From the IMG/VR virus record IMGVR_UViG_3300046460_000418: a DNA stretch of 48,701 nucleotides. One strand, given 5' to 3'. The translations under genes and the position numbers were made by a program. Shown here piece after piece: positions 2,472-45,853 of the stretch. The DNA comes from a virus. Lineage: Duplodnaviria > Heunggongvirae > Uroviricota > Caudoviricetes. Under the pieces are notes generated by a model, which did no database searches, was not told the DNA's origin, and saw only the letters and a list, made by a program, of their open reading frames with translations. The first letter of the stretch is position 1. Every line of letters starts with the position of its first letter.

Positions 2472-3007
2472 ACAATATGACCAAGCTTGCTATCGAGTTC
2501 ATCGTTACAAACCCACTGCTGGAAGAGTTGCACGGCGTGCCGGAGCACAAGACCACTGGTTCGGGAGCGATGGACCTCATCGCCTGCATCGACAAGGAAA
2601 TCATCCTGAAACCACAGGAGCAGATCATCCTCGACATGGGCTTCAAGATGCACATCAAGGACCCGCGTTTTGCTGGCGTTGTCATGCCACGTTCAGGAAT
2701 GGGTTCCAAGGGTCTCGTTTGCGGAAACACCGTCGGCTTCATCGATAGCGACTATCAGGGCCCCCTCAAGTGCGTCGTGTGGAACCGCTGGATGCCGGAC
2801 ATCTATTACAAGGAAGAACTGCTCTTCAAGGGCGGCGATGATATCGTCATCAAGCCAGGTGATCGAATCTGCCAGATTGCCTTCATGCGTGTCGAGCAGG
2901 CGAAGATCGTTTCCGTCACCTCATTCGACGAAGCAACGGCTCGCGGCGAAGGTGGCTTTGGATCGACCGGAACTGGGGCTCCACAGAATTCCATGCTGAA
3001 AATTTGA
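2468..3007 (+). CDS. dut: Trimeric dUTP diphosphatase with an extra C-terminal tail
   Basis: Motifs GSGAMDL, MPRSG, GFIDSDYQG, GDRICQ, RGEGGFGSTG; ATGA overlap with the folA stop sets the start at 2468. Confidence 0.95.
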   Translation: MNNMTKLAIEFIVTNPLLEELHGVPEHKTTGSGAMDLIACIDKEIILKPQEQIILDMGFKMHIKDPRFAGVVMPRSGMGSKGLVCGNTVGFIDSDYQGPLKCVVWNRWMPDIYYKEELLFKGGDDIVIKPGDRICQIAFMRVEQAKIVSVTSFDEATARGEGGFGSTGTGAPQNSMLKI

Positions 3008-3026
3008 TTTCGGGTAACGGACACGC

Positions 3027-3069
3027 TGAAAATGCGCGGTTCGACATTCAGATCGGCCGCGCATTTTCA
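3027..3069. terminator. 13-bp inverted repeat between convergent dut and sigma genes (bidirectional terminator-like)
   Basis: TGAAAATGCGCGG (3027-3039) / CCGCGCATTTTCA (3057-3069), 17-nt loop. Confidence 0.6.
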
Positions 3070-3085
3070 TATAAAGAAATCATTA

Positions 3086-3838
3086 TTATTCCCACAGGCC
3101 GCCGCTCAGGCCCGCATGTGTCAGAGCATCACGCATCTTTTCTATCGCCTGAACCTCAATCTGGCGCACACGTTCTCTTGTGATCAGCAGGTCGCGAGCG
3201 ATATCTTCCAGGGTCTCGGGATATTCGGTCAGCCTGCGGCGAAGAATGATCTTGCGTTCGCGTTCGGTAAGGCTGTCGAGTGCGATGGAAACCTGGCGCT
3301 CGGCTTCCTGCTGTGTCGATGCCGCGATAACGATATCTTCCGGGCCAGGGCTCGTATCCTTGAGGCGACTGACAATCGAATCACCGCCCTCGTCGTGCAG
3401 CAGAGTGGCATCGAGGCGAGTGGAGGGGAGAACTGCCAGACGGGCAGAATCGTTCTTGCCCTCGGGAATGCGGCCCATTCGCGCATCCATATAGGCTCGG
3501 GCCGGAATTGAGACGTCCGACATCGTCTTTGCCGTGGCGGCCGAAATGAAGGTTTGTATCCAGGGGCGCATATAGGTTGAAAACTTCACGCCTCGGGTTG
3601 GATCATAATTGATCATCGCCCTGGCAATGCCAAAGGACCCCTCTTGTGCGAGTTCCTTGATGTCTTCAACATTATCCGAATAGCTCGATGCCATACTGAA
3701 ACAAACACGATAATACGCGTCAGTGACACGGCGTAACGCCTTTTCACTCAGTGTTTCCTTGTATTCGGCTATCAGCGCCTTCTCCTCGGAAGGAGACAGC
3801 ATAGGGCGTGAAAGAGCCGAAGTGCGGGTTATGACCAC
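3086..3838 (-). CDS. Sigma-70 family sigma factor, RpoH/sigma32-like architecture, divergent
   Basis: Region 2 ELAQEGSFGIARAMINYDPTRGVKFSTY; region 4 LTERERKIILRRRL..ETLEDIARDLLITRERVRQIE; RpoH box not evident. Confidence 0.85.
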   Translation of the reverse strand: MVITRTSALSRPMLSPSEEKALIAEYKETLSEKALRRVTDAYYRVCFSMASSYSDNVEDIKELAQEGSFGIARAMINYDPTRGVKFSTYMRPWIQTFISAATAKTMSDVSIPARAYMDARMGRIPEGKNDSARLAVLPSTRLDATLLHDEGGDSIVSRLKDTSPGPEDIVIAASTQQEAERQVSIALDSLTERERKIILRRRLTEYPETLEDIARDLLITRERVRQIEVQAIEKMRDALTHAGLSGGLWE

Positions 3839-3921
3839 GGTGCTCCCTCCCAGCTATTCCTTTCAGAATTAGTGAGAGGCCTTGGCCGAAATAAGTCAAA
3901 TTTGTGGATTCCGCCGATAAG

Positions 3922-4158
3922 TCAGCCGCGCAGGCGCTGAATCGTTTCGATGGTTTTCCTTAAATAGAGGTTCATCAACTCCATTTTTGTATAGGAAACC
4001 TCGACGGATGGAGATAGGTCGCATGCTGTCATCAGCTGTCCCTCTGTCGCGTTCGTGGCCAGATATTTCAGGTGCGCCAGGATTTGCGCGTCGCTCTTTC
4101 CTTCGAACTTATCGAGATCGAGGACAAAATCGGCATAGGAAAGCTGTGGCCGTGGCAC
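3922..4158 (-). CDS. Small hypothetical protein (about 78 aa, GTG start just after the PBP1A stop)
   Basis: ORF 3922..4272 overlaps PBP1A; the GTG at 4158 follows the PBP1A TGA (4160-4162) by 1 nt and gives a helical-looking domain. Confidence 0.5.
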   Translation of the reverse strand: MPRPQLSYADFVLDLDKFEGKSDAQILAHLKYLATNATEGQLMTACDLSPSVEVSYTKMELMNLYLRKTIETIQRLRG

Positions 4159-4159
4159 G

Positions 4160-6448: not shown

Positions 6449-7083
6449 TACTGCTTTTTACCTTGGCCACTCGGTTTGGGGGGCGAAAACATCGGCGGAA
6501 GCGTGGATGCCAAGGAAAGCAAAAGTGTGGCATCCGGCGCTTTACCGTTGATGCGCACGACTGGCTCCAGTGAATGCGTTTTCTGATACAGTAGCAAGAG
6601 CTTCACGGCATCCCCGGCGAAAGGAATTGCCTTGGAAAGGCTGCGCCAGCCGTCGATTGCTGCCCGCCGGGCTCCTTCATGAAACACAGCGCCTGCGGTC
6701 ACCAGAGCAACCTCGCAACCAGAAAGTTCTCGCTTGAAGGCCGCAAGCTTCGGGTCATCCATCCGAAGACCGTCCACTTTCGGCGCGACCTGATGGATCA
6801 ATTCGAGCTGATCGGCGAATTCAAGGACCGCGTCGTAGCGCTGATCGACCTTCGGTTCATCTTTCAGATCGAGTGCCATCGGCGAATGGGAAAATCCTCG
6901 GCCGTAAATGAAGCCGCCAGCCACCATGAAGGCGTTTGAAACGGCCAGAACCTGTGCTTTTTCAATCGGCGATAGCGTGGTCAGTCGGGGAACGACACGC
7001 GGAGCGATTTCGCCAAGGGCAGCAAGGACTTTTTTCTGCTTAACAAAGGAAAACATGGATGTGCTCCAAAGGAATTTATCCAT
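6448..7083 (-). CDS. Hypothetical protein, about 200 aa
   Basis: TAATG stop/start overlap with PBP1A implies an operon; no motif recognised. Confidence 0.7.
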   Translation of the reverse strand: MDKFLWSTSMFSFVKQKKVLAALGEIAPRVVPRLTTLSPIEKAQVLAVSNAFMVAGGFIYGRGFSHSPMALDLKDEPKVDQRYDAVLEFADQLELIHQVAPKVDGLRMDDPKLAAFKRELSGCEVALVTAGAVFHEGARRAAIDGWRSLSKAIPFAGDAVKLLLLYQKTHSLEPVVRINGKAPDATLLLSLASTLPPMFSPPKPSGQGKKQ

Positions 7084-7189
7084 AATCCACGGCTTTTAAT
7101 TCTTTCTCAATAGATTGTTTTTAAGATGAATTTGACTCTGGGAATAATAGTTGACATATTTCCCTTGGAAGGGTGCTTTGCGAGGGAAA

Positions 7190-7738
7190 ATGCAACCCGA
7201 TGACAGTTTTAAGAAAGAGTTGGTAACTAGCCTTCCGAAGTTGAGGCGATTTGCCATGGTTTTGACCCGGAACCGTGAAGTTTCCGAGGACCTGGCCCAA
7301 AACACCGTAGAACGGGCTTTACAGCATTGGCGGCAGTATGAACCGGGCACTTCGATGATCGCCTGGCTTTACACGATCATGAAAAATGCTCACATCGAGG
7401 ATTATCGGAAAGATAAGTCCAGACGGAAGCAGTTTGAAGGATTTAAGCTCGATCTGCGCACGGACCCCTATTTTTTCCAGACCGCTCCCGAAGGAATTGA
7501 CCGGCTTATGTTGAAGCAGACCGGCATGATCATCGAAGCGATGCCTACGGCGCAAAAGGAAGCCTTGTACCTTGTTGGGCTGGAAGGTTATTCTTACGAA
7601 GAAGCCGCTGTCGTCTTGAAATGCGAAGTCGGAACAGTTAAGAGTCGGGTATCGAGGGCAAGGGAACGACTATCTCAGGTGTTCGACGAGGAATTCAAGA
7701 CAGGGCCGAAAAAGCCCCTGAAGTTTGAAATGGTTTGA
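7190..7738 (+). CDS. ECF sigma factor, EcfG/SigT (alphaproteobacterial general stress)-like
   Basis: LPKLRRFAMVLTRN..EDLAQ..YEPGTSMIAWLYTIMKN and EGYSYEEAAVVLKCEVGTVKSRVSRARERL; ATG 7190 after GAGG SD; TTGACA at 7151. Confidence 0.88.
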   Translation: MQPDDSFKKELVTSLPKLRRFAMVLTRNREVSEDLAQNTVERALQHWRQYEPGTSMIAWLYTIMKNAHIEDYRKDKSRRKQFEGFKLDLRTDPYFFQTAPEGIDRLMLKQTGMIIEAMPTAQKEALYLVGLEGYSYEEAAVVLKCEVGTVKSRVSRARERLSQVFDEEFKTGPKKPLKFEMV

Positions 7739-7822
7739 AAATGCTGCGATTTGTAATGCTCAAGCGAAAATCCCTGCACCGGGTAACACCTGGCTAGGAT
7801 TTCTGCTGCCTGCATTATCTGC

Positions 7823-7854
7823 AAGGGCCACGGGAAATCCGGCGGCCCTTTTTT
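7823..7854 (+). terminator. Rho-independent terminator after the ECF sigma gene
   Basis: AAGGGCC...GGCCCTT stem followed by a T run. Confidence 0.65.
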
Positions 7855-7935
7855 GTTGCCCGGTGCCGAAAACTTCCAAGGAAATCAGGAGTTCGGGACC
7901 ACGACCAACGCGTGGATCGGGCTTCTTCGTGATTT

Positions 7936-8217: not shown

Positions 8218-8304
8218 GAGAGTATGACCGGAGCGGCGACTGGTGCGGCCTTTTAAGCCGTTTGCGAAAGCACAACGTGGGTTCGAGTCCCACTGCTCTC
8301 ACCA
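8218..8304 (+). tRNA. tRNA with UUU (Lys) anticodon and long variable arm (class II body)
   Basis: Acceptor GAGAGTA/TGCTCTC, D-stem ACCG/TGGT, GCGGC-CTTTTAA-GCCGT, variable hairpin TGC-GAAA-GCA, T-arm GTGGG-TTCGAGT-CCCAC, ACCA. Confidence 0.85.
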
Positions 8305-8709: not shown

Positions 8710-9354
8710 TTACGCCACGGCCACGAACAATTCGAGTTCATCGGCATCTTCATCAGCCTCAATGTCCCGCTTCATCAGGTCGACGATGTACGCCTGGATG
8801 TTGCGCTCAGCGATGTCCTTATCCGGATACTGGTATACGTCGCCAGGAGGGCAATGAACTTGAAGGTTGGGTACTCGGCCACACCCGACGACAGCGATGG
8901 CTCCGAGTTTGGTCAACGAGTCCTTCCAGTCGGTCGGCCGGGCGTCCGGGGCGCAATCGAAGTCGATCTCCCAGGTGTTGTAATCCGGAACGAGCGCTCC
9001 TGCCTTGGCAAGGTCGGACGCCTTGGCGGCAAAGAGGACGGGAAAGCCGGTTTCGGTCCCGGCTTTATTCAGCGCAAATTTCAACGACATGTCGACACTG
9101 CTGGACCAGTAGGCGCATTGCAGAATGTCACCGCCGGAATGGTCCGGACCGGGCCCGGGACGGTAGACATAGGATTTCTTGGCGTCGAAGCCGTTTTCAA
9201 CAATCGAGATGGCAGATTTCTGCGATGTGCCATGGAAAAGCCAGGGATCGTTGGCCTCGGATGTTGCTTCCATCTCCCGGAACAGTGTCTCGATAGCGGC
9301 CCAATTTCGAATTTGGTCGGTATCCATCAATGTCGAGGGCGGAATAACGAACAT
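8710..9354 (-). CDS. ADP-ribosyltransferase-fold protein (H-G-T / Y motif)
   Basis: WLFHGTS..ISIVENGFD and AYWSSSVDMSLKFA resemble strands 1-2 of HYx-clade ARTs. Confidence 0.6.
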   Translation of the reverse strand: MFVIPPSTLMDTDQIRNWAAIETLFREMEATSEANDPWLFHGTSQKSAISIVENGFDAKKSYVYRPGPGPDHSGGDILQCAYWSSSVDMSLKFALNKAGTETGFPVLFAAKASDLAKAGALVPDYNTWEIDFDCAPDARPTDWKDSLTKLGAIAVVGCGRVPNLQVHCPPGDVYQYPDKDIAERNIQAYIVDLMKRDIEADEDADELELFVAVA

Positions 9355-14912: not shown

Positions 14913-15695
14913 ATGACGGACGATATCGGCAGTAAGGTCTTCGTCGACGTTCAAATCGGCGGCGAAATCAAGAGCTGTGAACTACTGCAGGACCTTTGCG
15001 AAAACATCCGCATGTATTTCTACCTCGACGATCCGGCCTTTGACGGACCTGATGGCATCAAGCTCATGGCGCAGCAGGTCAACGGCAACGCTGGGTACAA
15101 TGAAAGCATCCATATCCAGGGACTGATCAACCGTGACAGCCTGTTCAGCGCGAAAACCAGCACCCGTTACGTTGTCGAGGGCCTGGACGAGGGAAACATG
15201 TATCGCACAGATGCGGAGGGTGCTCCCTTCCGAATTTTCGACATCGAGACCCAGGATTGGCTCCCGACACCCTTCGAAGTGCGAGCGATAGCGCAGCTAT
15301 CCTGTGACCAGCTCAATAAGGCTGCAGCGAAGATGACGCACACGGCGATGAGCGACCTGCATGCGGTCTGCGTCATGGGAAATCTTCCATACCAGATTCT
15401 GGAAGCCAATCCCGAACAGGAAGGTTACAACACCATGATCACCTGGGAACCGGGCACGGATTGGGACGATAAGCAGCAGTTTGTCGATCTCGTCGGTGAA
15501 ATGGAACCCGGCATCTCGCTTGGAGACCTCCGCAAGGCGCAAAAAGAAGGCAACACGCTCGAAGACATCACTGCCAAGCTCGGCAAGGTAACGACCGTCG
15601 CTCTACGCCACAACCGCATTAAAATGGACGAGAGCATCTATCTCGAACTGCGCGATGCTCTTGATCAAGAGCAATCATCGTCACTGAAAATCTAA
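14913..15695 (+). CDS. Hypothetical acidic protein ending QEQSSSLKI
   Basis: Long ORF; ATG 14913 downstream of GAAAGG. Confidence 0.75.
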   Translation: MTDDIGSKVFVDVQIGGEIKSCELLQDLCENIRMYFYLDDPAFDGPDGIKLMAQQVNGNAGYNESIHIQGLINRDSLFSAKTSTRYVVEGLDEGNMYRTDAEGAPFRIFDIETQDWLPTPFEVRAIAQLSCDQLNKAAAKMTHTAMSDLHAVCVMGNLPYQILEANPEQEGYNTMITWEPGTDWDDKQQFVDLVGEMEPGISLGDLRKAQKEGNTLEDITAKLGKVTTVALRHNRIKMDESIYLELRDALDQEQSSSLKI

Positions 15696-15712
15696 CGCCG
15701 AGAGACAAAACA

Positions 15713-16327
15713 ATGCTAATGACACAAGAAGCCATCGAAGCCGAAGCCCCGATTCACGCCCTCATCCGCGAGAAGATGAGTGTCTTCTCATTGCCCAGCG
15801 AACTCGACCTCATGACCGCACGAGAAGATTGGGAAGATGTCGAGGAGGACTACGCAGACGTCGTAACTCCGGAGCTGATCGCAAAATTTGGCGGCGAAGA
15901 ATCTGGTGGAGAAGGTTTCCTTGCCACCTTGAACGGCAAAATTGGGCAATGGGTCGAAATGGAATATGCCAGCACTCATCGCGATGACAGCCTCACCCTT
16001 GATGAAGCATACAACGGCGAAGTGCCGCCGTCGCCGACCGAGCTAATTGCCAGGGCTGCCTGGGCTGCCATTCTTCTCCAGCAATCGTATCCTGAAGCAA
16101 GTTTCCGTGTTTCGGAGGGTTCGCATGCCTGGGGAGGGAGAGTATCATTCGGCGCTTTCCTTCCAGAAGGCATACCGAACCGTGAGGAAATCATCGACAC
16201 GTTCTACAAAACAGAGCTGCCGAAACTGGATATCAGCATCGTTAAGCAGCTTTATGGCGACGCATACGATAAGGTGAACGACTACTTTGATAGCATTTCA
16301 CCGCCTTCATCAGGGTTGAAAATGTAA
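15713..16327 (+). CDS. Hypothetical acidic protein ending SPPSSGLKM
   Basis: Clean ORF 17 nt after the previous stop, followed by a terminator. Confidence 0.75.
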   Translation: MLMTQEAIEAEAPIHALIREKMSVFSLPSELDLMTAREDWEDVEEDYADVVTPELIAKFGGEESGGEGFLATLNGKIGQWVEMEYASTHRDDSLTLDEAYNGEVPPSPTELIARAAWAAILLQQSYPEASFRVSEGSHAWGGRVSFGAFLPEGIPNREEIIDTFYKTELPKLDISIVKQLYGDAYDKVNDYFDSISPPSSGLKM

Positions 16328-16334: not shown

Positions 16335-16374
16335 ATAAGAAAGCCCGCCAAAACACAACGGCGGGCTTTCTTAT
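16335..16374. terminator. Bidirectional rho-independent terminator
   Basis: ATAAGAAAGCCCGCC / GGCGGGCTTTCTTAT 15-bp stem between convergent genes. Confidence 0.8.
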
Positions 16375-17165
16375 TTTTGGTCGTGAAAACCTTCCGGGAA
16401 TTCAAATTGAATGAAGCTCGAAGCCTTTTCCATGTTCGCATAACCGCCGAAGAAACAGGTATCGCTCGATCCGTAAGGATTAATCTCGATCAGTAGAAAG
16501 CTTCCGTCGTGACGCACAAAGATGTCGAAAACGACGGTTTCCAGATGAAGCGTTGGCTTCAGCACATCCTTGAACCAGGCCTCAATCCGGGTGCGAAGGT
16601 CCCGCCCGCCATCTTCAGGAGGTTTGATCGGTTTCTGGTAGTCGTAATGGGTGACCGCGATGAGATCGCCAGCCTTCACGAAGCAGCGGAATTCTTTCGA
16701 AGGTGTCATTCCATAGACGATGTCACGCAGGCAAACGTAAGCAGGCTGCTCTGGCAGATAGCTGAACTCCTGCAGATCGTCGAGAACCCGCATCGAGCAG
16801 GATAAAATCGATAGGGCCTCCTTGCCAGAGAGCGTCATTGGAGACTCAAAGGGCCACGGCGAATCTTTCGGTGAGCGGCTGTTCAGTCTGATGAACTTCC
16901 GATCCCAACCGAGTTCCGCGTCAAGTACGGGCGCGAACGCGTTCATGATCGGACCTGGGACATTGCCGTCATGGAGGTCACAGAACTCTTCGTAAAGACC
17001 ATCGGGTACCTGGACGAGCTTGGTCGGCATAGACAAAGCTGCCAAATCGGCTGGCCAATGGTCAATCAGAGTTGGCTGGTTCCACTTGAGCCACTTCAGC
17101 GATGTTGCCCTGTGCTGCTCCAGGGTCGGCATTTTAGGCTCGGGGATCGATTTCAGAAATGACAT
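16371..17165 (-). CDS. R2K-clade (Cdc123/D123-like) ATP-grasp protein
   Basis: KFIRLNSRSPKDS, SMRVLDDL, EFRCFV..LIAVTHY, VVFDIF, LIEINPYG..DTCFF match the Cdc123/R2K motif order. Confidence 0.8.
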   Translation of the reverse strand: MSFLKSIPEPKMPTLEQHRATSLKWLKWNQPTLIDHWPADLAALSMPTKLVQVPDGLYEEFCDLHDGNVPGPIMNAFAPVLDAELGWDRKFIRLNSRSPKDSPWPFESPMTLSGKEALSILSCSMRVLDDLQEFSYLPEQPAYVCLRDIVYGMTPSKEFRCFVKAGDLIAVTHYDYQKPIKPPEDGGRDLRTRIEAWFKDVLKPTLHLETVVFDIFVRHDGSFLLIEINPYGSSDTCFFGGYANMEKASSFIQFEFPEGFHDQK

Positions 17166-17184
17166 GGACACTTCCCTTGCCTGA

Positions 17185-17871
17185 TCAGGCGGCCAGCTTG
17201 GCAAGATCGGAGGTGAAGAATTCCTTCACCCAACGGGTATGGGTCTCGAAGGCGGTTTCGACCGGCTTATCGGTGGTCAACACTTCAAGAATTTCCTGGT
17301 CGGCATCGCGTGTCAACGGATCGTCGACGCGGCCCTGGTAGACGGCAAACAGCAGATTGACCTTACCGCCTTCGACTGTCTCGGTCGCCACCGACTTCAG
17401 CAAAGCAGGGTCGAGAACAATACCGGTCTCTTCGAAAACCTCACGGCAACCGGCATGCTGCCATGTTATATCCGCGACCTCCTGGTACCCGCCAGGAAGT
17501 GCCAGCTTGCCGTGCGTGTCGCGAGCAGCGCGACGGACGAGAAGAAGGCCGGACGCGACCGGCACCAACACAACGACCACGGTAGGCGGATTGTGGAAGA
17601 CGATTTCGCCCGGGAGGGGGCGAACGCTGCCGTCGAAGGGCTTCCAGTAGTTGAAGCCGTCGGCGAAGTGGATGGCCTCACCGTCATGCGCCCGGAAGAA
17701 GAAATCCGGATAGTCAGGTCCAACGAGCCCGAGCACAAATTCTGATGTTGCCGGATTGAAGAAGGCGTAGAGACGGCGCTGCTCGGTCGGCTGGTTCGAA
17801 CCGGCAATCAGTTCAGACCAACCGTTTTGCGTTCCTGCTTCATAAAGTGCATGGCGTTCTTCAGGTGTCAT
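17185..17871 (-). CDS. Nudix hydrolase
   Basis: NPPTVVVVLVP..LLLVRR and Nudix box ALPGGYQEVADITWQHAGCREVFEETG. Confidence 0.85.
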   Translation of the reverse strand: MTPEERHALYEAGTQNGWSELIAGSNQPTEQRRLYAFFNPATSEFVLGLVGPDYPDFFFRAHDGEAIHFADGFNYWKPFDGSVRPLPGEIVFHNPPTVVVVLVPVASGLLLVRRAARDTHGKLALPGGYQEVADITWQHAGCREVFEETGIVLDPALLKSVATETVEGGKVNLLFAVYQGRVDDPLTRDADQEILEVLTTDKPVETAFETHTRWVKEFFTSDLAKLAA

Positions 17872-20373: not shown

Positions 20374-21219
20374 TTAGATCGTGATGGCAGTAGCAAACGG
20401 TCGGTCGGCGACCCTGGGCGTTGCGTTGTTGAAGACGAACTCAGTCAAATTCTCAAGCACAGCCAGAGCAGGCATGTTTGGAACACGATCAATGGTCATC
20501 GTCATGACCGGCTTTTTCGGACGATACTCCTCAGGGATTCTTGCGAGCACCTCGGGATCGAGCGGACGTTCGATTCGATAGCGCCGCACGAAGCTGCCGC
20601 GCCGGACATGTTCCGGCAAGGCATCGAAGTCGATGCCCTTGGTGGCCAGCATGGCTTTGCGGTCCACGCTCGACTTTCCGCTGAGATCATTGGCGGCGAA
20701 GTGCTTGAGGGCAACCGCCTCAACAGTCGACTTACGCGCAATGGTTTCGCGCCATAGAAAGAATTTCGCGGCCACTTCCTCGCTCGGAAAGGCAAAGGAC
20801 CGAGCAATGAACTGCGGGAGCACCAGCTTGTTGTTCGGATCACGGAACATGGCGGGGAAACGTTGATGGGCGAAATGAACGACCGCTGCCGACAAGGTCG
20901 ACGCAACCGATACCGACATATCGCCATGACTGCCCATTGATTTCCGCTGGCTGTCCCTGAAGCGCATCAAAAGCGAAACCTCGCTCGCGTGGCTGTATGT
21001 GATGAGCCCGGAGTAGCTCTCAATCAGGTGCTTGGTCGCATCGATGATGACGTCAGTGAACGCGGCGCGGTTCTCCGGAGCCAGAGAGCTGATGATTTTC
21101 TGCAGGTTCTGGCCTTCGAGATGAACGATAACTGGCACTTCGTTCTCGATGGCAGTTGTTCTGTCATCGATCAAAAAGCGGGAGAGTGCTTGTCCGAGCC
21201 CGTCGCTAACAATTGCCAT
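20374..21219 (-). CDS. tRNA(His) guanylyltransferase Thg1-like protein with altered catalytic carboxylates
   Basis: VIVHLEG, YSHASEVSLL, PQFIARSF, FFLWRE, KGIDFDALPEHVRRGSF follow the Thg1/TLP layout. Confidence 0.75.
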   Translation of the reverse strand: MAIVSDGLGQALSRFLIDDRTTAIENEVPVIVHLEGQNLQKIISSLAPENRAAFTDVIIDATKHLIESYSGLITYSHASEVSLLMRFRDSQRKSMGSHGDMSVSVASTLSAAVVHFAHQRFPAMFRDPNNKLVLPQFIARSFAFPSEEVAAKFFLWRETIARKSTVEAVALKHFAANDLSGKSSVDRKAMLATKGIDFDALPEHVRRGSFVRRYRIERPLDPEVLARIPEEYRPKKPVMTMTIDRVPNMPALAVLENLTEFVFNNATPRVADRPFATAITI

Positions 21220-21237: not shown

Positions 21238-23127
21238 CTAATAAACATAAACGGTTGAACCCGCGTCCATTTCGAACGGGATATAATCCCGCTCAGCACC
21301 TGGACCAAGCCATTGATCCGGCGGCTGGGCGACACGTCCAGGAACATCCCTTCGGTGTCGATAGACCATGGAACGTAGATCGTTCCGCCCTCCCACGCCA
21401 TTCGCGACGAGCTTGGGTCGAAGGCGTTTCCGCTTCGACGGCCTATGCGCAGCATGCGCTCCGTTGAATGCGCGGCTGACCTCGCTCCATACCGACCATA
21501 CATGCCTCGACTTCGGAGCTTGCTCCGATTTTTCCTTCCTTACAGGTAGGTCAAGGGTGACAGGGTGGGCATTGTTGAGCGGGAGCGTGACTTTGCGCTC
21601 CTGATCAACTGAACGAGGCAATCGTTCACTCAGACCCATTGCCCTGCGGGCAATGGAAACAGCAGCGGCCGCGTGCACAGTGAGCCCGTAGCGGGCTGCA
21701 AACTTCGTGCGACCGATAATGGAGGTGTAAGCCGGGTTGACCCGGGCATGATAAACGCCTGAGCGTGCGCAGGCTGACGCAAGCGCTGCATCGAAGGCAG
21801 AATATGCGAAGGACGAAAGCATGCGAGCGTAACGTGGGCCGTCTTCGGCACTCAATCGGTCCTTTTTGCTGGAAAAGTCCAAACGCTCCGAGACGACGGG
21901 TAGATCATGCTCCGCAGCATATGCGGCAATCTTCGTGGCCGCTTTACGAAGCGCGTCACGGGATTGCTGCTCGCTCTTTCCGTAAGTCACACAAGGAATA
22001 TCGAAGCTCTCGACAACATTACCATGCAGGTCGATCCGGCTGACCGAAAAGAACCCGACGTTAACATCCACGCCGACCGCGCCAGACCGATAGTCGCGGA
22101 TTGCCTTCGGCGTAACCTGGTTGACCGTCACCATCAACTTCCACGACGTATCGTCGCGGTGAAAACGGACGCTGATCGGTTTCCTATCGTTTAATGCTTC
22201 TGCAATCGCGTCAGCGCCATGATGGAAAGATAGGCCTTTCAGCCTGACCGAGCGGATCGTTTTGCCTTTTGCAGCGACCGCCTTTGTGGCGAGCTGTTTC
22301 AGCGCCTCCGGCAGGCGCAACTCCAGATCAAGCAGACCATTTTTGGAAAGCTTTAGCCGAGCAAACGGATTGCCGCTTTCTACAGACGCATCACCTTCGA
22401 ACATAAAGGTTTTGAATCGAGACCATTTCCATTCTTCAAGCCAGGCGGAATGGCTGGGAATGTCATTGTCATCGAGATTAAATTGCTTTCGAAAACGCTT
22501 TTTCGAGCCGAAGCAGATTGAGGGATTGTCGATCTGCAATTCTGTCATCGCAAGCTTGTGACGGAGAATGTTCAGCTTGCGCATGTGCTGGTGAAGATCG
22601 CGCTTCAAACGCCTGACTAAAGTCATCGACGCGCCAAGTTTCAGTTCAGCCTTGTGGAACTTGTCGAAAGCCGTCTTCAACCGCGCCAGGATTTTGTCGC
22701 GCTGTGATGGTTTCGCCGAGTCCAGCTTCACTTTCAATTCGTCGATCAGTCTAGAAAGCTTATCGATCTTTCCAGCCAGCGTTTTCTGCTCTTTCCGCTG
22801 TGCACTGACCGTCTTTCGCTTGTTCGCGATCACGCCGATCTTCGCCTTGGTCTTCACATCCAGCTTATTTTTGCGCTGTTTTGCAAGCTCAGAGATCGAC
22901 GAGAGCTGGCCTTGTAAAGCGCGGTACGCATGAAGAAGATGTGTCGAGGTGATGTCAAAATCGCGGTATAAGCTTTTGTGCAGATCACCGGTCCAAACCC
23001 GACCTGACTGAAGTTTCGCATGAAGCGTTCGTTGGACTCGGTTCATCAGATCGGCATATGCATCGAGAACTGGCGCAAGGTCATCCTTGTCGCGAAAATC
23101 CAGTCGTGTCTCGAAAGTACGGATCAA
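21238..23127 (-). mobile_element. tnpB: Stand-alone IS200/IS605-family TnpB-like RNA-guided nuclease gene (629 aa, TTG start)
   Basis: RuvC-I GVDVN, RuvC-II VVSERLDF, VNPAYTS, RuvC-III region YGLTVHAAAAVSIARR; no tnpA in the window. Confidence 0.8.
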
Positions 23128-23219: not shown

Positions 23220-23609
23220 TCACATTTTGCCAATTGGCCGCTTCACATACGGCGAGAATTTACGCGCATAAAAGCTCTTCGTCCGAACCTGCACTGTAGG
23301 CGTGCAATGCCGAAATGGGTCCGGAACAAATGGTCCCTTTTTCTTTGTTTCACCGAGGTGCCCACGAAGGCGGTTGAGAGGTCCTGGAAATTGGTCAAGT
23401 GTCGGGACGTTACGGCACGGCTGCCTCGAATACCACCTGAGCTTACGCAAATTGACAAAGGGGAACGGTTTGGCGGTCCGGGGGTCATAACGCCGCTTAT
23501 TGACGTAGTAGAGAGGCAATCCTTCGAAATCGATGCCGAAAGGATACATTTCATAGGGTGGTGTGTAGCCGTGGTACTGTTGATAATTTCGCATTCTCGA
23601 TTGCGGCAC
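23220..23609 (-). CDS. Hypothetical basic Tyr/Pro/Arg-rich protein
   Basis: ORF 23220..23699 with GAGGAG SD before an internal GTG near 23609; TTGACA upstream at about 23699. Confidence 0.4.
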   Translation of the reverse strand: MPQSRMRNYQQYHGYTPPYEMYPFGIDFEGLPLYYVNKRRYDPRTAKPFPFVNLRKLRWYSRQPCRNVPTLDQFPGPLNRLRGHLGETKKKGPFVPDPFRHCTPTVQVRTKSFYARKFSPYVKRPIGKM

Positions 23610-23717
23610 TGCCGCTCCTCTTTGTTGCCGTGCCCGTGCACGACGCGTGATTATTTCTTTGAGTGAGAATACGGTTGGCCAAGAGAGAATGAATGTCAAC
23701 AGAGGGAGTCAGACGGT

Positions 23718-24215
23718 TTAGATTGAAAATCCCGAGGGTTCCAAGGCCGGTAATTCAATCCCAAATTCGGCCGCGATCATCGAAAGATTGATAATCGCCG
23801 CCACAGGAACTGTTGTCGTATAGGCAACCTGATTGCTGGTCGAAAGGCTCAATTCCCATGGAACGTCTTGCCAGCGCTTGAAAGGCCGGAGGCGTTCGTC
23901 GATCTCAAGGTCGGAGGGCTCGACACCCCGGGCATCGTCATCGATGTCTCCATGGATATCCTTGAGCCTGCCGACCAGGTCGTAGTCGTCGGGTTCGAGA
24001 TGGGACCGGTCGACCATATCCGGATCGATTTCAAGGACGACTGCACGACCGCCGCGCCGATCACAGCTCAACACCGAATATTCGTCCGCATGGTTTTCGC
24101 AGTCGGTCAGATAGATCGCCGTCCGTGTTTCATTGTCTGTAGAGACCTGCGGAACGAGGCCATCCCTGATGATCGCTTTCAGTCGCGCAGTCGTGGTGCC
24201 ATGGTAGAACTTCAT
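23718..24215 (-). CDS. ADP-ribosyltransferase-fold / Tpt1-KptA-like protein ending EPSGFSI
   Basis: MKFYHGT..AIIRDGL, AIYLTD..HADEY, VVLEID, VPVAAI resemble small HYx ART domains. Confidence 0.65.
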   Translation of the reverse strand: MKFYHGTTTARLKAIIRDGLVPQVSTDNETRTAIYLTDCENHADEYSVLSCDRRGGRAVVLEIDPDMVDRSHLEPDDYDLVGRLKDIHGDIDDDARGVEPSDLEIDERLRPFKRWQDVPWELSLSTSNQVAYTTTVPVAAIINLSMIAAEFGIELPALEPSGFSI

Positions 24216-24365: not shown

Positions 24366-24403
24366 GGGTCGATCTTCTGTGCTCAAAGCTCAAGGAAGTC
24401 CAC

Positions 24404-24426
24404 CCCGCCACTCCGGCGGGTTTTTT
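24404..24426 (+). terminator. Attenuator terminator upstream of metG
   Basis: CCCGCC-ACTCC-GGCGGG followed by TTTTTT, 45 nt before the metG ATG. Confidence 0.85.
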
Positions 24427-24471
24427 ATTGCCATGGCCCGCCGTCCAACTTCATTGAAAAGGACCACGACC

Positions 24472-25986
24472 ATGACGAACACACTCTACCTCACGACGAC
24501 AATTCCCTACGTCAACGCCAGCCCGCATGTGGGCTTTGCACTCGAACTAATTCAAGCCGATGTCATTGCCAGGTCTCACCGCGAGCGCGGCTATGATGTC
24601 CGGCTGCAGACTGGCTCCGACGAAAACAGCTTGAAGAATGTCCAGGCGGCCGAGAAGGTTGGAAAGTCTACGGAAGAACTGGTCGCAGAGAATGCACAGC
24701 ACTTTCTCGCCCTGCAGCGGGCGCTTAACATCTCGGCTGATGATTTCATTCGCACCAGCACCGATCCGCGCCACCGGCCTGCCGTGGAAAAACTCTGGTA
24801 TCAATGCGAGGAGAGCGGCGATCTCTATCAGAAAACCTATTCCGGGCTTTATTGCACTGGTTGCGAGCAGTTCTATCAACCAGGAGAGCTGTCCTACGGC
24901 TGCTGCCCGGAACACGGTACCCATCCGGAAGAAGTAACGGAGACCAACTGGTTCTTTCGGCTGTCGCGCTACGGAGACAGGTTGAGGGAGCTGATCGAGA
25001 CCAGGGAGCTGGACATCACACCAGAAAGCAGACGCAACGAAGTCCTGGCATTGATCAGGGCAGGCCTGGAAGATTTCAGCGTCTCACGCAGCTCGACCAG
25101 AGCCAGAGGATGGGGCATCCCGGTCCCCGGCGATGCCGACCAGACGATCTACGTCTGGTATGACGCTCTCGGAAACTACCTAAGTGCCCTGGGGTATGGC
25201 TCGACGGATGTCGATGTGGATCGGTTCTGGAACAATGCCGAGCGGCGCGAACATCTGGTTGGGAAGGGCGTCACACGCTTTCATGCTGTCTATTGGCCCG
25301 CGATCTTGGTCTCAGCGGGCTTGCCATTGCCAACCCGTATTTACGTCCATGGTTATGTCACCGTCGATGGCCGAAAGATCGGCAAGTCGAACGGCAACGC
25401 GATTGACCCGGTGCCGCTTGTCGAGCGGTTCGGAGCTGATGCTGTGCGCTATTACCTCCTTCGCCATATCCGGGCAACGGAAGACGGCGACTTCACACTT
25501 GAGCGACTGGAGCAGGCTTACACCTCGGAACTGGCCGGGCAGCTCGGCAATCTTGCGCATCGACTGCTGGCGATCACCCAGAAGATCGACGGTCAACTAA
25601 TACTGAGCATAGCCAGCCTGGATCATGCAGAAGTCGAGGCCGTCCGTGAGCGAGTTGCCTATGCGGTTCAAAAAGGTGAATTTCATGAAGCTCTTGGCTC
25701 GATTTGGACTCTGGTTGCTTTCGCAAACAAACATGTCGCGGATCGGCAGCCCTGGGCAATTGTGAAAAAGATCAGCCAGGAAACCGATGAAAGGGAACGA
25801 TGGATTTTGCAAAAGGCTGCAAACGCCTGCCTCGGCGAGTTGCTTGGTCTCGTCAATGAGATTTCTTCCCTGCTCACACCCTTCCTGCCCGAAACAGCCG
25901 GTCGGCTCAAAGAGCAATTGGCGCGTGCTGTTGAAGGAGGGGAGGCCCGTGACAGCTTCCATCCTGTTTTCCCAAAGCTTGCGTAG
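24472..25986 (+). CDS. metG: Methionyl-tRNA synthetase (short form)
   Basis: YLTTTIPYVNASPHVGF (HIGH), TGSDE, CTGC..CPEH knuckle, YVWYDAL, GKGVTRFHAVYWP, KIGKS (KMSKS), LGNLAHR. Confidence 0.95.
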   Translation: MTNTLYLTTTIPYVNASPHVGFALELIQADVIARSHRERGYDVRLQTGSDENSLKNVQAAEKVGKSTEELVAENAQHFLALQRALNISADDFIRTSTDPRHRPAVEKLWYQCEESGDLYQKTYSGLYCTGCEQFYQPGELSYGCCPEHGTHPEEVTETNWFFRLSRYGDRLRELIETRELDITPESRRNEVLALIRAGLEDFSVSRSSTRARGWGIPVPGDADQTIYVWYDALGNYLSALGYGSTDVDVDRFWNNAERREHLVGKGVTRFHAVYWPAILVSAGLPLPTRIYVHGYVTVDGRKIGKSNGNAIDPVPLVERFGADAVRYYLLRHIRATEDGDFTLERLEQAYTSELAGQLGNLAHRLLAITQKIDGQLILSIASLDHAEVEAVRERVAYAVQKGEFHEALGSIWTLVAFANKHVADRQPWAIVKKISQETDERERWILQKAANACLGELLGLVNEISSLLTPFLPETAGRLKEQLARAVEGGEARDSFHPVFPKLA

Positions 25987-34851: not shown

Positions 34852-35076
34852 TTAGGCAGCGATCTTGTTGATCATGTCCGGACGGAAACCGGCCCAATGC
34901 TGCGTGCCAGCCATGACGACCGGAACCTGCTGATAGCCCATACCCTTAACCAGCGCCATCGCATCGGCATCCTCGCTGATATCAACCTTCTCATAGGCGA
35001 TACCCTTCTTGTCGAGAGCCTTCATGGTAGCGACGCACTGGCCGCAGGACTTGGTGCTATAAACGATAACCGACAT
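34852..35076 (-). CDS. nrdH: Glutaredoxin-like NrdH
   Basis: CGQC motif, [14 protein letters not shown]; first gene of nrdHIEF. Confidence 0.95.
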
Positions 35077-36618: not shown

Positions 36619-36999
36619 ATGCCCGATCAAGACCCGATTGATGTTGCCATCAAGGAAATCGCTTATATCGCGGGCACCACGTATGGCCTTCAGTCCATCA
36701 TGGAAGAGCACAGCGACACAAATGCCTTCAACTATCACGCCAAGGAATATTATCGCGGGCTTGCTCAGACCTATCAGAGTGCCGCCCGTAAAGCGCTTAC
36801 GGCATTGAAAGATGCAAAAGCGGCAGCGCCGGTTTCCGAAGAAGCAAGCGGCCTGACGGATGATCGAGAGATAAAGCAGCCAATCCCGACCTTCGCCAGA
36901 CGGATCGAGCCGGTCATACCAGTCACACGCGTCCGCATCCGGCGGGTCGGCGAAAAGTTTACGGCCGAAATTATTGACCGAAACGGGGCTGAAAAGTGA
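36619..36999 (+). CDS. Hypothetical protein
   Basis: AAGGAG SD upstream of ATGs at 36614/36619; in-frame ORF. Confidence 0.55.
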   Translation: MPDQDPIDVAIKEIAYIAGTTYGLQSIMEEHSDTNAFNYHAKEYYRGLAQTYQSAARKALTALKDAKAAAPVSEEASGLTDDREIKQPIPTFARRIEPVIPVTRVRIRRVGEKFTAEIIDRNGAEK

Positions 37000-37630
37000 A
37001 CTCGCTGGTACGAGCTGGTTTGAGAGACGGCATGTTTTCGAACGAATAGCCGACCACGTCGACAACGGCTTGACGATAAAGCGGGCCATTGACGAGATGA
37101 CGTGGGTCGTCATCGTGGTTTTGCGCGAAAATGCCCTTACCGACCTGGCGAAGCATGCCTTGCGTGATTTCGCCTGCGGTCAGCATCTTGCCATCGTGTC
37201 CGATAAAGAGGGCAACAGGCAGCGTTGCGCTGTCGTCGCCCATCAGCTTGATAAAACGGCGAACATCCGCTCTTCCACCGCTGGCAGCAACGATACCAAC
37301 CTTACGATCCTCGCCGATCTGAACGAACAGAAACGGGGTGCGTAGCGGGCCGTTTGAGTGGTTGACGTTGTTCTCGTTGATCAGCGGAGTAAGGCTATTG
37401 AAGGTCTTTGCCTTCATTTCCGTTACTGCACCGTAGTAGCCGACGGTGGCGACCTTTTCTTCAAATCCAAGATCGCCACCGGTACGCTCCGGTTCACGAC
37501 GGCCAGCATTGTTGAATTCGATCTCATTGATGAAATATTCGCCCGTCTGAACAAATGAGCGCGAAAAGTCGAGCGAGCCGTCATCGCGAAGAATTTGCAG
37601 CAGTGGAATTCGATAGCGGTTCGTTTGCAT
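36971..37630 (-). CDS. Hypothetical protein ending EFTFQPRFGQ
   Basis: 219-aa ORF, GAGGG SD; convergent 29-bp overlap with the previous gene. Confidence 0.7.
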   Translation of the reverse strand: MQTNRYRIPLLQILRDDGSLDFSRSFVQTGEYFINEIEFNNAGRREPERTGGDLGFEEKVATVGYYGAVTEMKAKTFNSLTPLINENNVNHSNGPLRTPFLFVQIGEDRKVGIVAASGGRADVRRFIKLMGDDSATLPVALFIGHDGKMLTAGEITQGMLRQVGKGIFAQNHDDDPRHLVNGPLYRQAVVDVVGYSFENMPSLKPARTSEFTFQPRFGQ

Positions 37631-44000: not shown

Positions 44001-44217
44001 GACCGATGGATCGGCTGCAAAATGGATCAAGTTCAACAGGATCGCCAACAACAAGGCGACAGCGGTCAAGTGGATTACCCGCGCGGATAACTTCTTGCCG
44101 TGCAATCCAACACAGTGGCACATCCAAATGAGCCCCGATGACGTGAACTGGACGACAATTGGCACCGGCTCTTCAACTGGGGCAGTTGGAACATACACCA
44201 CACAAATACCGCAATAG
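38050..44217 (+). CDS. Giant exported Ig-like (He_PIG-type) repeat protein with C-terminal discoidin/F5-8-like domain
   Basis: Signal-like N-terminus; many LP.G(L/I)(S/T)FD..TG.ISG.P repeats; C-terminal YPAKNLTDG..W..KWIKF..IQMSPDDVNWT. Confidence 0.9.
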   Translation: MWDLPMFRSVFGASLILFNSFSFGQAASFDNGQYFFRYSTSSVQKGEDDSEASKDITAFFAGGVGIAFSQKIPMRPEWENDNWVLTSGKLPAGISFDSSTETFSGKPTAVVSNREVELVGYDKSGSEVATASVTFDILQLPIGATFHVDLYAHTGKYSFNQLAVPAGITVDKWTVLDAPPPGVNIIGRNLDGTPTKPGTYRLLIQGLDFLGKPVVAFVGTFTVEDAPVFPLVADKLINTDLQYQPSVRVDFATTKVKRAIGKPRYYVEVEGDNPLPGNLYVTNDVFNPHVTGYIFKNYDQATLRYKAVDSDETVAYSNWFKVGTLGPAPNCGTYTTNPVPMNLDGYVGTAFPPYYIPTTNSAGSRTYALVDGQLPKGLSLDAASGLISGTPQQEETREGIAVRIDVSNSGNVDSTTCGPYTFRINPARFDLSASVSPKDFHVGGAVTGVLKTSGGILPGWSVALDSASALPSGVTFDKNALSFSGTVNVAGTYQPTFTLTNGDGRQVKAATTFIAREQLALGEPALKSVAQFELLDDLASAIVDGDTVVGAAKMTVEGGSLPPGMSFAFDGVKGSISGGTKLSPQSFGPYTFKVTDDEGQIANSAPFYLQVTDRKDLVASQPVSPNFTIKKFSSLKPVTVALPPLGDSLVLSYTLNGPALPEGLTFDKDTGTISGTPSAKITLTNYTITVTDGQKSVTSAPFPVTVGDPAAIPPIILGSITKNVTGQVVSFLTTPAPDLSTVADFMVGDVKDAKFTSITPSVPGLFPELSNGTLSGNPTTPFDGDVSISFEDSAGREGKAVVHLIILPYPSISVGQASYSLSRLADASKIGFNLSPNNGFIGSIQYSLASGSNPLPSGITLTSQGTLSGSTTVNPQTFGGIIVNAKDLSTGIEVQSGAFAIKIDEQTGLTLALPQKQLTYRLFNGTFAISSADVFNPAPAPTGSRVQPLKWSIDDDGGSGLSISSSTGQLTGTPGRLGSWPITLRVTDSDTPPSSTTDNVTVKATLQGWVVTEPGGQAIGPLRVGESFTTLSQTPSNYVGNPVYSDLNNTGLSLNPSTGQFSGSFDAPGTSTWKLQVTDKDGRTLQNPATFSADIVEPLQFDQSGTPSTVISKQFDSAARVTMQFKPATHSMGKVSYAISDNLPGTLVYKFYPNDDLSAKPVFFHYDAQGSAMELAADALPDDAFVFDTVNLTLTGVPSASGSFGQIFLYASDDHQDDYQSPNDPTRVSNNTAVAGPFTINVAAADGLVASNNLSSEVIYQYTSQPTIRSTVLNGAYGKPIKFERKAGTLPTNVTANGSGNILTYQGYSTAIGTQSGIIYQATDAVGRSIDLPVVSIETKAREPLVLEASSNPQGMVVFEDDANLIVSAKNVPFGGSIASDKWTLTGLSNLPAGVTSQIENGHVSFSGTASVIGTYKDIIVSAVDSLGGSASVSLTFKVISSSDPIEVNVSNITTKVGMPVKMEPPFAAAPISTGNTYGTIRFSSADIATLFPGVTLDSSTGALSGSLSSVQENTFNLKVNDGTNRLTSKSVKISVIPNLRIVAPTLITTTQGADANVAVDTSFNIGTVSYVGKGTWPAGLSVNPATGAIKGSAAASTGTYPGLTIEGVDASGDRQSSNVFSIKVDPIDALPIIANVPLNKWPFGTVEIPIQNFTSTVTDNVKGKAWPGPLTFTLNHDIADAGLTFDSKLGVISGTATKPFLYKDLIVTVRTERGDTVSTAPFWFGVQPKDAIVIAAGQKSHYTVRVGSGYSTDPLIFLNTFGNVTFTNVQALVKPINPTNGVYSEATVTASSMTGQPQGGWPEDAVVTDEFGRTGTFRTSLEVAPAVTLTPPATVSFEIASPSKTSDKPVVAGVVGTPTWSTQGMPSWLTFNADGSFTGSAPTGTPVGDVSFSVTVTDPSDGASKTATYTAKVYTIKSYRVVLDAWVAHPTIATCVGMSEFYVMNGTSDITSLSGVVPSSSDKDYPAKNLTDGVVSTASMWFLTDGSAAKWIKFNRIANNKATAVKWITRADNFLPCNPTQWHIQMSPDDVNWTTIGTGSSTGAVGTYTTQIPQ

Positions 44218-44234
44218 AAGCTGTAGGTCATAAA

Positions 44235-44275
44235 CAAATAAGGGCGACACCCAACACAGGTGCCGCCCTTATTTG
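44235..44275. terminator. Bidirectional terminator-like inverted repeat
   Basis: CAAATAAGGGCG-A-CACC / GGTG-C-CGCCCTTATTTG between convergent genes. Confidence 0.75.
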
Positions 44276-44304
44276 TGTCGACGTGACACTTTGGTCTAGT
44301 TTTT

Positions 44305-44682
44305 CTACCGCATTCCAGGGGTAGACGGCTCATCATCAATCTCGATTTTACCGGTGACGATGTCGAGCACAAGCTTCTCTGCATCCTCGTAGAAGAGGTG
44401 CTGTTCACAAGCCCAGTCGATATACTCCCTATAGCTGCTGCCTTTGGCGGGTGGTGGTGATGACCACCTGTGCTCGGCCTGAGCTGCCGACTTGGCCACA
44501 ACTGGCTTCGCAGGGGCGACACGGGGTGGCGCTGCAGCAGGAACGGGAGGGCGTGTTGCCTGGACTTGCGGCCGAGGCGAGAACCCCGGTCGAGCGGGCG
44601 CACCGGGGCGAGCGGCAGGCGAAGGTGTGGGGGATGCGGTGTGCCCGGCGTTCGACTGCCCTCCACCAATCTTAAATGCCAT
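44305..44682 (-). CDS. Hypothetical protein, Pro/Ala-rich N-half, small C-terminal domain, ends DDEPSTPGMR
   Basis: Overlaps the CCA gene end by 11 bp, same strand. Confidence 0.65.
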   Translation of the reverse strand: MAFKIGGGQSNAGHTASPTPSPAARPGAPARPGFSPRPQVQATRPPVPAAAPPRVAPAKPVVAKSAAQAEHRWSSPPPAKGSSYREYIDWACEQHLFYEDAEKLVLDIVTGKIEIDDEPSTPGMR

Positions 44683-45853
44683 AGCTGGGTTTCTCCTCGA
44701 TATCAGCCGACATTTCGACCAGGTCGTCCTTGGAAAGTGTGAATTCGCTGTCCTTCCATGCCCTGGTCAATCGCCTAAGCTCCTGCCCCAGTTCAACGCC
44801 GGGCTGATGACCAATAGCAAGCAGATCGCGTGCGTGAAGCGGAAAGACCGGGACATCTGCAAGCATTGCTTGGGCCGCTTCGCTGCGGTTGGTCACCTTG
44901 AGCACAGGAATGGCCGTTGCGCTGTCGAGCCCCTCGACCTGCTTGCAGCGCCAGTAGTGGGGCGAACGCGTCAGATCGGCTTGCACGGCCGCTGCCGTCG
45001 TTACTCGAAGCCGTTCCGTATTCGACAGCTTCCAGGACGACGCGAAGGCCTCGGCCGAAGCAGGGTCGTCAAAGAACGATCCCAACAGAATTGCGGCATC
45101 ATTGGTTGCTTTTCGAATTCTGGAGAACTTCAGATTTCGTTGGATGTCGAATTCCGGCAAGCCAATAGCCTTGGAGACACCGAGCATCTCCATCAGGATC
45201 AATTGCTTCTCACCCGTCTGCGAAGACAATATCTGGCTGGTCTCCTTCCAGATACGCTCAGCTGAAATCTGGCCGAGCCCCGGCGCATGGTTGGCAATCG
45301 CTGCCAGAGAATATCCATCATCCGACGACGCATTGCCAAAACGGGCGCGGAAGCGGAAGAAACGAAGGATGCGCAGGTAATCTTCCTGGACGCGTTCCTC
45401 AGGATCGCCAACGAACTTAACGCGGCCCATCTTGAGGTCGTCAGCACCACCGAAATAGTCGTGCAGCTGACCCGTGTGATCGGCCGACATCGCATTGAAG
45501 GTAAAGTCGCGGCGGGCAGCATCAAGACGAAAATCCTTGATGAAGCTCACATCGGCCCAACGGCCATCCGTATTGCTATCGGTACGCAGGGTCGTGAACT
45601 CGTATCCTTCGCCCTCGTGGACGACAGTGACGGTCCCATGCTTCAAGCCAGTCGGGATTACCTTCAGGCCATGATTGTCGGCGATTGCCATGACGTCCTC
45701 GGGCAATGCATCAACCGCGAAGTCGAAGTCTTTTGGCTGGAGGCCCAGGATGCGGTCCCGGACAGCCCCGCCAACCGGACGTGCTTCGACACCCTCGCGA
45801 GCATAAAGTGCTGCAAGCATTTCAACACTGCGATTTCCGAAATCTATCCGCAT
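44672..45853 (-). CDS. cca: CCA tRNA nucleotidyltransferase (class II)
   Basis: VGGAVRDRILG, DFDFA, EFTTLR, DAARRDFTFNAM, EDYLRILRFFRF; likely start MRIDFG. Confidence 0.93.
   Translation of the reverse strand: MRIDFGNRSVEMLAALYAREGVEARPVGGAVRDRILGLQPKDFDFAVDALPEDVMAIADNHGLKVIPTGLKHGTVTVVHEGEGYEFTTLRTDSNTDGRWADVSFIKDFRLDAARRDFTFNAMSADHTGQLHDYFGGADDLKMGRVKFVGDPEERVQEDYLRILRFFRFRARFGNASSDDGYSLAAIANHAPGLGQISAERIWKETSQILSSQTGEKQLILMEMLGVSKAIGLPEFDIQRNLKFSRIRKATNDAAILLGSFFDDPASAEAFASSWKLSNTERLRVTTAAAVQADLTRSPHYWRCKQVEGLDSATAIPVLKVTNRSEAAQAMLADVPVFPLHARDLLAIGHQPGVELGQELRRLTRAWKDSEFTLSKDDLVEMSADIEEKPSYGI

Follow-up and report, generated by a model that had tools for sequence, protein, structure and literature searches.

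Why should several unrelated proteins encoded on one DNA end in nearly the same few residues? This question is raised by the IMG/VR virus record IMGVR_UViG_3300046460_000418, a stretch of 48,701 nucleotides (48.7 kb) that was analyzed as a whole and is referred to below as the window. An initial annotation listed eight C-termini in it as a shared tail on a dUTPase, a CCA-adding enzyme and other proteins, and interpreted the tail as a tag by which proteins are delivered to recipient cells. The eight endings that it quoted are all exact in the sequence. In the present study, a codon-usage gene call on the window gave 39 likely genes, and six of these end in [LFMIYVW]-[KRSTG]-[IM]-COOH. When the six proteins are aligned from the free end, the consensus is a small residue or Ser, a hydrophobic residue, K/S/T/G, and then I or M. 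Five of the eight proteins listed earlier (the dUTPase, 14913, 15713, 23718 and the CCA-adding enzyme; proteins are named by their first coordinate where needed) have this ending, whereas 44305, 36971 and 23220 do not match the pattern. The sixth bearer, a Thg1-like enzyme, was absent from that list. In three of the six, namely the dUTPase and the orphans 14913 and 15713, the ending is L-K-[I/M]. The six bearers, and then the three proteins outside the motif, are as follows.

2468..3007, plus strand: dUTPase (179-aa form), ending in ..SMLKI; Pfam PF00692, E = 1.8e-24.
14913..15695, plus strand: acidic orphan of 260 aa, recognized by coding score, ending in ..EQSSSLKI.
15713..16327, plus strand: acidic orphan of 204 aa, recognized by coding score, ending in ..PPSSGLKM.
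20374..21219, minus strand: Thg1-like tRNA 5'-end guanylyltransferase of 281 aa, ending in ..RPFATAITI; PHROG 4717, E = 1.7e-21, residues 19-229.
23718..24215, minus strand: Tpt1/KptA-like protein of 165 aa, NAD-binding lobe only, extended by some 20 residues that end in ..EPSGFSI.
44672..45853, minus strand: CCA-adding enzyme (393-aa form), ending in ..EEKPSYGI; Pfam PF01743, E = 7.9e-28.
44305..44682, minus strand: small protein rich in Pro and Ala, ending in ..EPSTPGMR; its frame overlaps the stop codon of the CCA gene.
36971..37630, minus strand: orphan with a good coding score, ending in ..FQPRFGQ.
23220..23699, minus strand: open reading frame (ORF), probably no gene, ending in ..RPIGKM.

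The three misfits differ in kind. Other assemblies also annotate a gene for the 44305 protein, in a form of 64 or 125 aa whose end is conserved, and a hydrophobic-x-[IM] ending was not found in it. The end of the 36971 protein is conserved among close relatives. The ORF at 23220-23699 has an odd composition with a flat GC content by codon position (0.54/0.47/0.53; 0.53 at the third position, vs 0.66 in known genes); it was not picked by the coding score, and its exact sequence was not found in the protein collection. We did not count it as a gene, given the lack of a codon-position signature and the absence from that collection.

The pattern is concentrated in real genes. The six reading frames of the window contain 386 ORFs of at least 40 aa; all six carriers of the pattern are real genes, and none of the remaining 347 ORFs has it (Fisher P = 7e-7). 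Relaxed to hydrophobic-x-[IM], the ending is found at 6/39 C-termini (15%), compared with 2.0% for tripeptides inside these proteins (P = 1.2e-4) and 2.1% for a set of 1006 ORFs at unrelated loci. For further comparison we used a distant relative of the window and the one complete replicon among its relatives, plasmid pRlX5 of Rhizobium leguminosarum TP16 (NZ_CP140867.1; circular, 1,323,531 bp), which carries a CCA-adding enzyme (46% identity) and a dUTPase (43%), and the co-resident plasmid pRlX4; the frequencies were 1.7% in pRlX5 (1272 proteins) and 0.5% in pRlX4 (644 proteins). The stricter L-K-[IM] ending occurs in three of the 39 window proteins and in one of 2922 control proteins. To correct for multiple patterns, we scored 32,674 degenerate patterns over the C-terminal three positions and set the best P against those of 300 random draws. 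The pattern-corrected empirical P for L-K-[IM] was 0.003 with a null made of pRlX5 tails (reached by one draw) and <0.0033 with a composition-matched null (reached by none). The enrichment beyond chance is thus significant, and it is not overwhelming because the window itself was chosen from a very large scan.

We considered whether the 3' ends of these genes share a DNA repeat, a terminator or a promoter motif and ruled this out; the octamer in common is rare and non-specific. Since the codons and stop codons vary and no repeat is present, the likeness of the tails is at the protein level and not at the DNA level.

The history of the tail can be followed best in the dUTPase. The Pfam match stops at motif V, at residue 188 of 199, which is 11 residues short of the end. 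The protein belongs to a clade marked by an internal insertion, with twelve related clusters at 64-99% identity, and only the relatives at 93-99% carry the tail (..STLKI). In the variant at 93%, three spacer residues are changed and L-K-I is kept, and the relative at 87% has another, shorter extension that ends in ..GGISI. The dUTPase ortholog in pRlX5 ends directly after motif V and is tailless. By this comparison, the dUTPase tail is apparently a recent, lineage-specific gain. The initial annotation placed the tails of the dUTPase and the CCA-adding enzyme beyond the normal end of the fold. For the dUTPase this is correct, as shown by the position of motif V and by the tailless relatives at 64-85% identity; for the CCA-adding enzyme it holds in part, as a comparable extension is present in all alphaproteobacterial relatives.

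The two orphans are the other bearers of L-K-[IM]. On a near-identical 1.43-Mb contig, the alleles of 14913 and 15713 have 77% and 62% identity, respectively, vs 97-99% for the neighbouring dUTPase, Tpt1-like, Thg1-like and 36971 proteins, and the 15713 allele ends in ..AAALKM, so that L-K-M is retained. Five homolog clusters of 14913 end in LKI, LKI, FKI, MKI and PTI after an invariant E-Q-S; in this family, [LFM]-K-I is present in five of six clusters while positions -4 and -5 are variable. Relatives of 15713 at 43% identity are without the ending. Judged from these alleles, 14913 and 15713 appear to be adjacent hypervariable genes that keep the ending. One allele within the pair (14913-16327, plus strand) has an internal deletion of about 55 residues. 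Neither orphan has a family match in Pfam, PHROG or NCBIfam, and a search of the ESM Atlas was empty. In the AlphaFold 2 model of 15713 (pLDDT 83, pTM 0.82), the last helix stops at residue 194 and residues 199-204 have a pLDDT <50; with no secondary structure past residue 194 and such low values at the end, the tail is predicted to be free and flexible. No solved fold above noise was found for 15713 with Foldseek or VIA-align. The model of 14913 is poor (pLDDT 46).

The remaining three tails have different histories. The reading frame of the CCA-adding enzyme is open up to 45967, and its best identity among 401 sampled Alphaproteobacteria is 46%. An extension of 10-15 residues past the last conserved helix is present in all alphaproteobacterial relatives, and its end differs by clade: P-x-[YH]-G-[IL] at identities of at least 74%, W-[HR]-L-K at 64-65%, ..HGL at 52-54% (including Rhizobium sp. 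MHM7A), and ..GPRP, GLRP or GLRR in more distant Rhizobiaceae-type relatives. The Thg1-like protein is annotated as tRNA(His) guanylyltransferase in one source. The Tpt1-like protein has weak NCBIfam matches to RNA 2'-phosphotransferase (E = 1.6e-3, residues 3-68) and a match to PHROG 13493, and its tail is identical among relatives of at least 90% identity. On the basis of the conservation comparison across the six tails, the L-K-[IM] trio seems to behave like a constrained, portable ending, and the other three may be look-alikes.

What could such an ending be for? We tentatively favour the explanation that it is a lineage-specific C-terminal docking motif with a putative common reader. The three L-K-[IM] tails would be its solid core, and the endings of the CCA-adding, Thg1-like and Tpt1-like enzymes could be either members of the set or look-alikes; a shared reader is perhaps the most economical account of the core. 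In this model, a short linear motif would mark a subset of the accessory proteins of the lineage, namely the dUTPase, the three enzymes of the tRNA-end repair type and the two acidic orphans that evolve fast. The motif starts with a flexible spacer rich in Ser, Gly and Pro; position -3 is hydrophobic, position -2 is K (or S/T/G), and the last residue is Ile or Met. One cytoplasmic partner would recognize the free carboxylate together with the -1 and -3 side chains, much as class II PDZ ligands are bound or as AAA+ unfoldases and their adaptors recognize C-terminal degrons, and would deal with the marked proteins jointly. We infer the single reader and the outcome of binding, for which we rank turnover or recruitment above export. 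The proposal that one label on unrelated proteins serves a common partner had been made earlier, and it gains some support from the enrichment in real genes, from the last three residues kept in fast-diverging alleles and from the one tail predicted to be disordered.

The tail has a free carboxylate, is hydrophobic at both -1 and -3 and follows a flexible spacer, a chemistry typical of peptide-in-groove recognition. A class II PDZ ligand is hydrophobic-x-hydrophobic-COOH. All six tails (LKI, LKI, LKM, FSI, YGI and ITI) have this form at the carboxylate, with a flexible spacer before it. However, bacterial PDZ proteins are mostly periplasmic whereas the tail-bearers here are cytoplasmic, and no candidate PDZ-like reader was found. 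The C-terminal degrons of ClpX (the ssrA-like x-A-A, and MuA with ..RRKKAI) are likewise very short free-end signals on unrelated proteins, and the MuA class consists of basic residues followed by an aliphatic Ile (PMC8138137). The match to them is partial: three of the tails place a K before the terminal I or M, and none of the six ends in A-A, although two other window proteins do. Furthermore, the six tails have no basic cluster and are hydrophobic at -3. Ends of the x-A-A type are common across Rhizobium plasmids (4.5% in pRlX4 and 8.8% in pRlX5).

Several points weigh against a docking motif. The sample is small, the pattern was set post hoc and the window is one of about 250,000, so that a P of about 0.003 does not settle the matter. 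The distant relative pRlX5 is without the enrichment, and [LFM][KR][IM] ends are found in 4 of its 1272 proteins. The CCA relatives differ widely in their ending, and the tail is an old family feature. The Thg1-like tail is also old and homologous: the pRlX5 ortholog (32% identity) ends in ..FAASVAL, and one close variant ends in ..ITV. The dUTPase relatives at 64-85% have no tail and end 2-6 residues past motif V. Three residues kept at 62-77% identity are weak evidence of constraint. Finally, no reader was identified.

These points lead to the strongest rival explanation, a possible though somewhat doubtful one, that there is no common system: the L-K-[IM] trio would be a chance pick from a huge scan, and the other endings would be protein-specific cases of hydrophobic-x-hydrophobic. 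The ancestral CCA tails with a different ending in each clade, the homologous counterpart of the Thg1-like tail in pRlX5, the loss of the dUTPase tail below about 93% identity and the lack of enrichment in pRlX5 are all in favour of coincidence, as is the failure of three of the eight cases originally cited, one of which is not a gene. Against coincidence are a pattern-corrected P of at most 0.003 for L-K-[IM], the 6/39 genes vs 0/347 other ORFs, and the ending kept in hypervariable alleles. If coincidence is correct, the finding is an ordinary one.

The delivery function first proposed, with the tails as Dot/Icm-like or other translocation signals that are read by a coupling protein and send proteins into a recipient or target cell, appears improbable. 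Substrates of Dot/Icm in Legionella and Coxiella are described as having a hydrophobic residue near the C-terminus and small residues upstream (PMC3052360); a Glu-rich block at about -10 to -17 is a further feature of these signals. The residue at -3 in the six tails is L, L, L, I, F and Y, hydrophobic in all, and small residues occupy 2-6 of the seven positions from -11 to -5, which agrees in most of the tails with these features. An unstructured C-terminus with small or polar residues upstream is common to both, and the ..QSSSLKI end is near that of the optimal synthetic Dot/Icm signal, which ends in ..SSLLSSLKL (PMC5802825), so that ..SSLKL there stands against ..SSLKI here. In addition, the two hypervariable orphans act like effector-type genes, and the host of pRlX5 has a co-resident conjugative plasmid of the MPF_T type. 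However, no tail has the Glu-rich block: there are 0-2 Glu at -17 to -10 in each. The proposed check for icm/dot-like genes covered the window ORFs scanned and pRlX5. No type IV secretion domain was found in the former, and pRlX5, which is typed non-mobilizable, has no match to VirB4 (PF03135) or to a VirD4-type coupling protein (PF02534). Signals of the MPF_T/VirB type are positive, whereas the last 20 residues carry a net charge of 0, -2, -1, -3 and -4 in five of the tails and +1 in the Thg1-like one, unlike the Arg-rich positive signals of the VirB/VirD4 type. The cargo would consist of housekeeping-type cytoplasmic enzymes, that is, nucleotide and tRNA enzymes on a Rhizobium-type megaplasmid and not effectors of an intracellular pathogen. 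Moreover, the Dot/Icm criteria are loose and fit many tails. With no type IV machinery seen in the window ORFs scanned or in pRlX5, no Glu-rich block, and three of the eight cases lacking the motif, a Dot/Icm-like delivery tag is unsupported and, as noted, improbable.

Another explanation concerns the gene that is convergent with the orphan pair.

16371..17204, minus strand: D123/CDC123-type ATP-grasp enzyme of the R2K clade; Pfam D123, E = 2.4e-17; R2K_3, E = 5.6e-8; R2K_2, E = 3.3e-6.

The tails could be acceptor or docking sites for this adjacent enzyme, which would extend or modify the C-termini as RimK and the tubulin ligases do. We consider this very improbable. For the R2K clade, a role in conflict systems has been predicted, namely the ligation of peptide tags to proteins (PMC4431377), and the gene lies tail-to-tail with both L-K-[IM] orphans; the enzyme, both orphans and the Tpt1-like protein are all missing from pRlX5, which itself has no enrichment. 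The enzyme is thus, speculatively, a candidate reader or modifier of C-termini. Nevertheless, the argument depends on adjacency and a single co-absence, a substrate is known for no R2K enzyme, the known C-terminal ligases use acidic ends and not Lys-Ile, and the tail-bearing genes are scattered over 43 kb.

That the tails are cargo-loading peptides for an encapsulin-like shell or a phage-type capsid is barely credible: although the peptides of family 1 encapsulins likewise have a flexible linker and then a small-small-Leu-Lys/Arg core near the C-terminus (PMC7925596), no shell gene was seen, with no Linocin_M18 (PF04454) or HK97 capsid match in pRlX5 or among the window ORFs scanned, and encapsulin peptides have two hydrophobic anchors and adjoin the shell gene, whereas the tails here have a single anchor pair at -1/-3 and are on other cargo types, enzymes of a sort not known as cargo.

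If the favoured docking motif is a real label, then the dUTPase, the three tRNA-end repair enzymes and the two diversifying orphans would be one co-handled set on a poorly understood class of giant replicons. The last three residues would offer a simple handle on the reader and on the export, assembly or timed turnover of counter-defence enzymes. A broader version, which we regard as unlikely, is that giant tRNA-rich extrachromosomal replicons of Rhizobium-type hosts use lineage-specific C-terminal labels of 2-4 residues, here hydrophobic-K-I/M, on accessory enzymes and fast-evolving orphans. A single dedicated reader would recognize them, and it could be the R2K ATP-grasp ligase encoded next to the orphans or a machine for export or turnover. 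If true, this would be an addressing system not previously described.

What kind of replicon, then, does the window come from? It has 55% GC, about 39 likely genes and seven tRNA genes in two arrays. The genes identified are listed below in four lines.

Nucleotide metabolism: thymidylate synthase, dihydrofolate reductase (DHFR), dUTPase, and the class Ib ribonucleotide reductase set NrdHIEF.
Regulation, cell wall, DNA repair and mobility: RpoH-like sigma, ECF sigma, MarR, class A penicillin-binding protein, MutL, UvrD, an HNH protein and a TnpB-like protein.
RNA and nucleotide-linked enzymes: Thg1-like, Tpt1-like, CCA-adding enzyme, methionyl-tRNA synthetase (MetRS), NUDIX, and the D123/R2K ATP-grasp.
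Others: a DUF4139 protein and a 2069-aa Ig-repeat protein.

Relatives of the window proteins are on contigs of 1.16-1.46 Mb from several assemblies, some of which are labelled Rhizobium sp. MHM7A or Agrobacterium rubi. In a tblastn comparison, pRlX5 shows inverted synteny with the window, in the order ThyA-DHFR-dUTPase-sigma-PBP1A ... MutL-MarR ... UvrD-Thg1 ... CCA, at 30-70% identity. It carries 57 tRNA genes that cover all 20 amino acids, and no 16S rRNA match was found in it. The window thus looks like part of a family of giant, tRNA-rich replicons of about 1.3-1.4 Mb. By tblastn, no counterpart of the two orphans, the Tpt1-like protein or the ATP-grasp enzyme was found in pRlX5, and the MetRS gene (24379-25986, plus strand) also has no counterpart there, its only match being a weak one to a different ORF that resembles class I synthetases. 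Because pRlX5 has neither the orphans nor the enrichment, the tail is, as far as the comparison goes, specific to the narrower lineage of the window.

Two other origins of the window were considered and rejected. As for a phage, the phage collection gave no DNA match, the dUTPase clade is not in IMG/VR, and the CCA relatives on huge-phage contigs have only 33-39% identity. A planctomycete origin was hinted at by the MutL matches; the orphan is missing from 401 Pirellulales genomes, and other markers point to Rhizobium-associated replicons.

Some further features of these replicons were observed. The ATP-grasp gene overlaps a NUDIX gene (16371-17871, minus strand, for the two), and the window also encodes the lobe-only Tpt1-like protein (23718-24215, minus strand) and a protein with a weak PARP-like match (8710-9354, minus strand). 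Such a set is typical of, and resembles, NAD/ADP-ribose and tRNA-repair conflict systems. A 629-aa protein (21238-23127, minus strand) has a C-terminal region like that of TnpB, of the RNA-guided endonuclease family, with a homolog of 48% identity elsewhere in pRlX5.

Only two window proteins end in Ala-Ala.

17185..17871, minus strand: NUDIX hydrolase, ending in ..KLAA (Pfam PF00293 and PF00462 for this protein and NrdH).
34852-35076, minus strand: NrdH, ending in ..KIAA.

An Ala-Ala excess in pRlX5 (8.8% vs 4.5% in the co-resident pRlX4) seemed striking and was discounted, as it is just twofold over this control. The [RK]-Pro ends are at 3.1% in pRlX5 vs 0.8% in pRlX4, and G-P-[RK]-x ends were found six times in pRlX5 vs 0.35 expected. 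As the codons differ, this C-terminal bias of pRlX5 is at the protein level.

Finally, the window has an over-long tRNA-Lys(UUU) gene of 87 nt (8218-8304, plus strand), and pRlX5 has one of 91 nt (144413-144503). It adjoins a normal tRNA-Lys(CUU) gene in both and, being present in both, is conserved across distant relatives.

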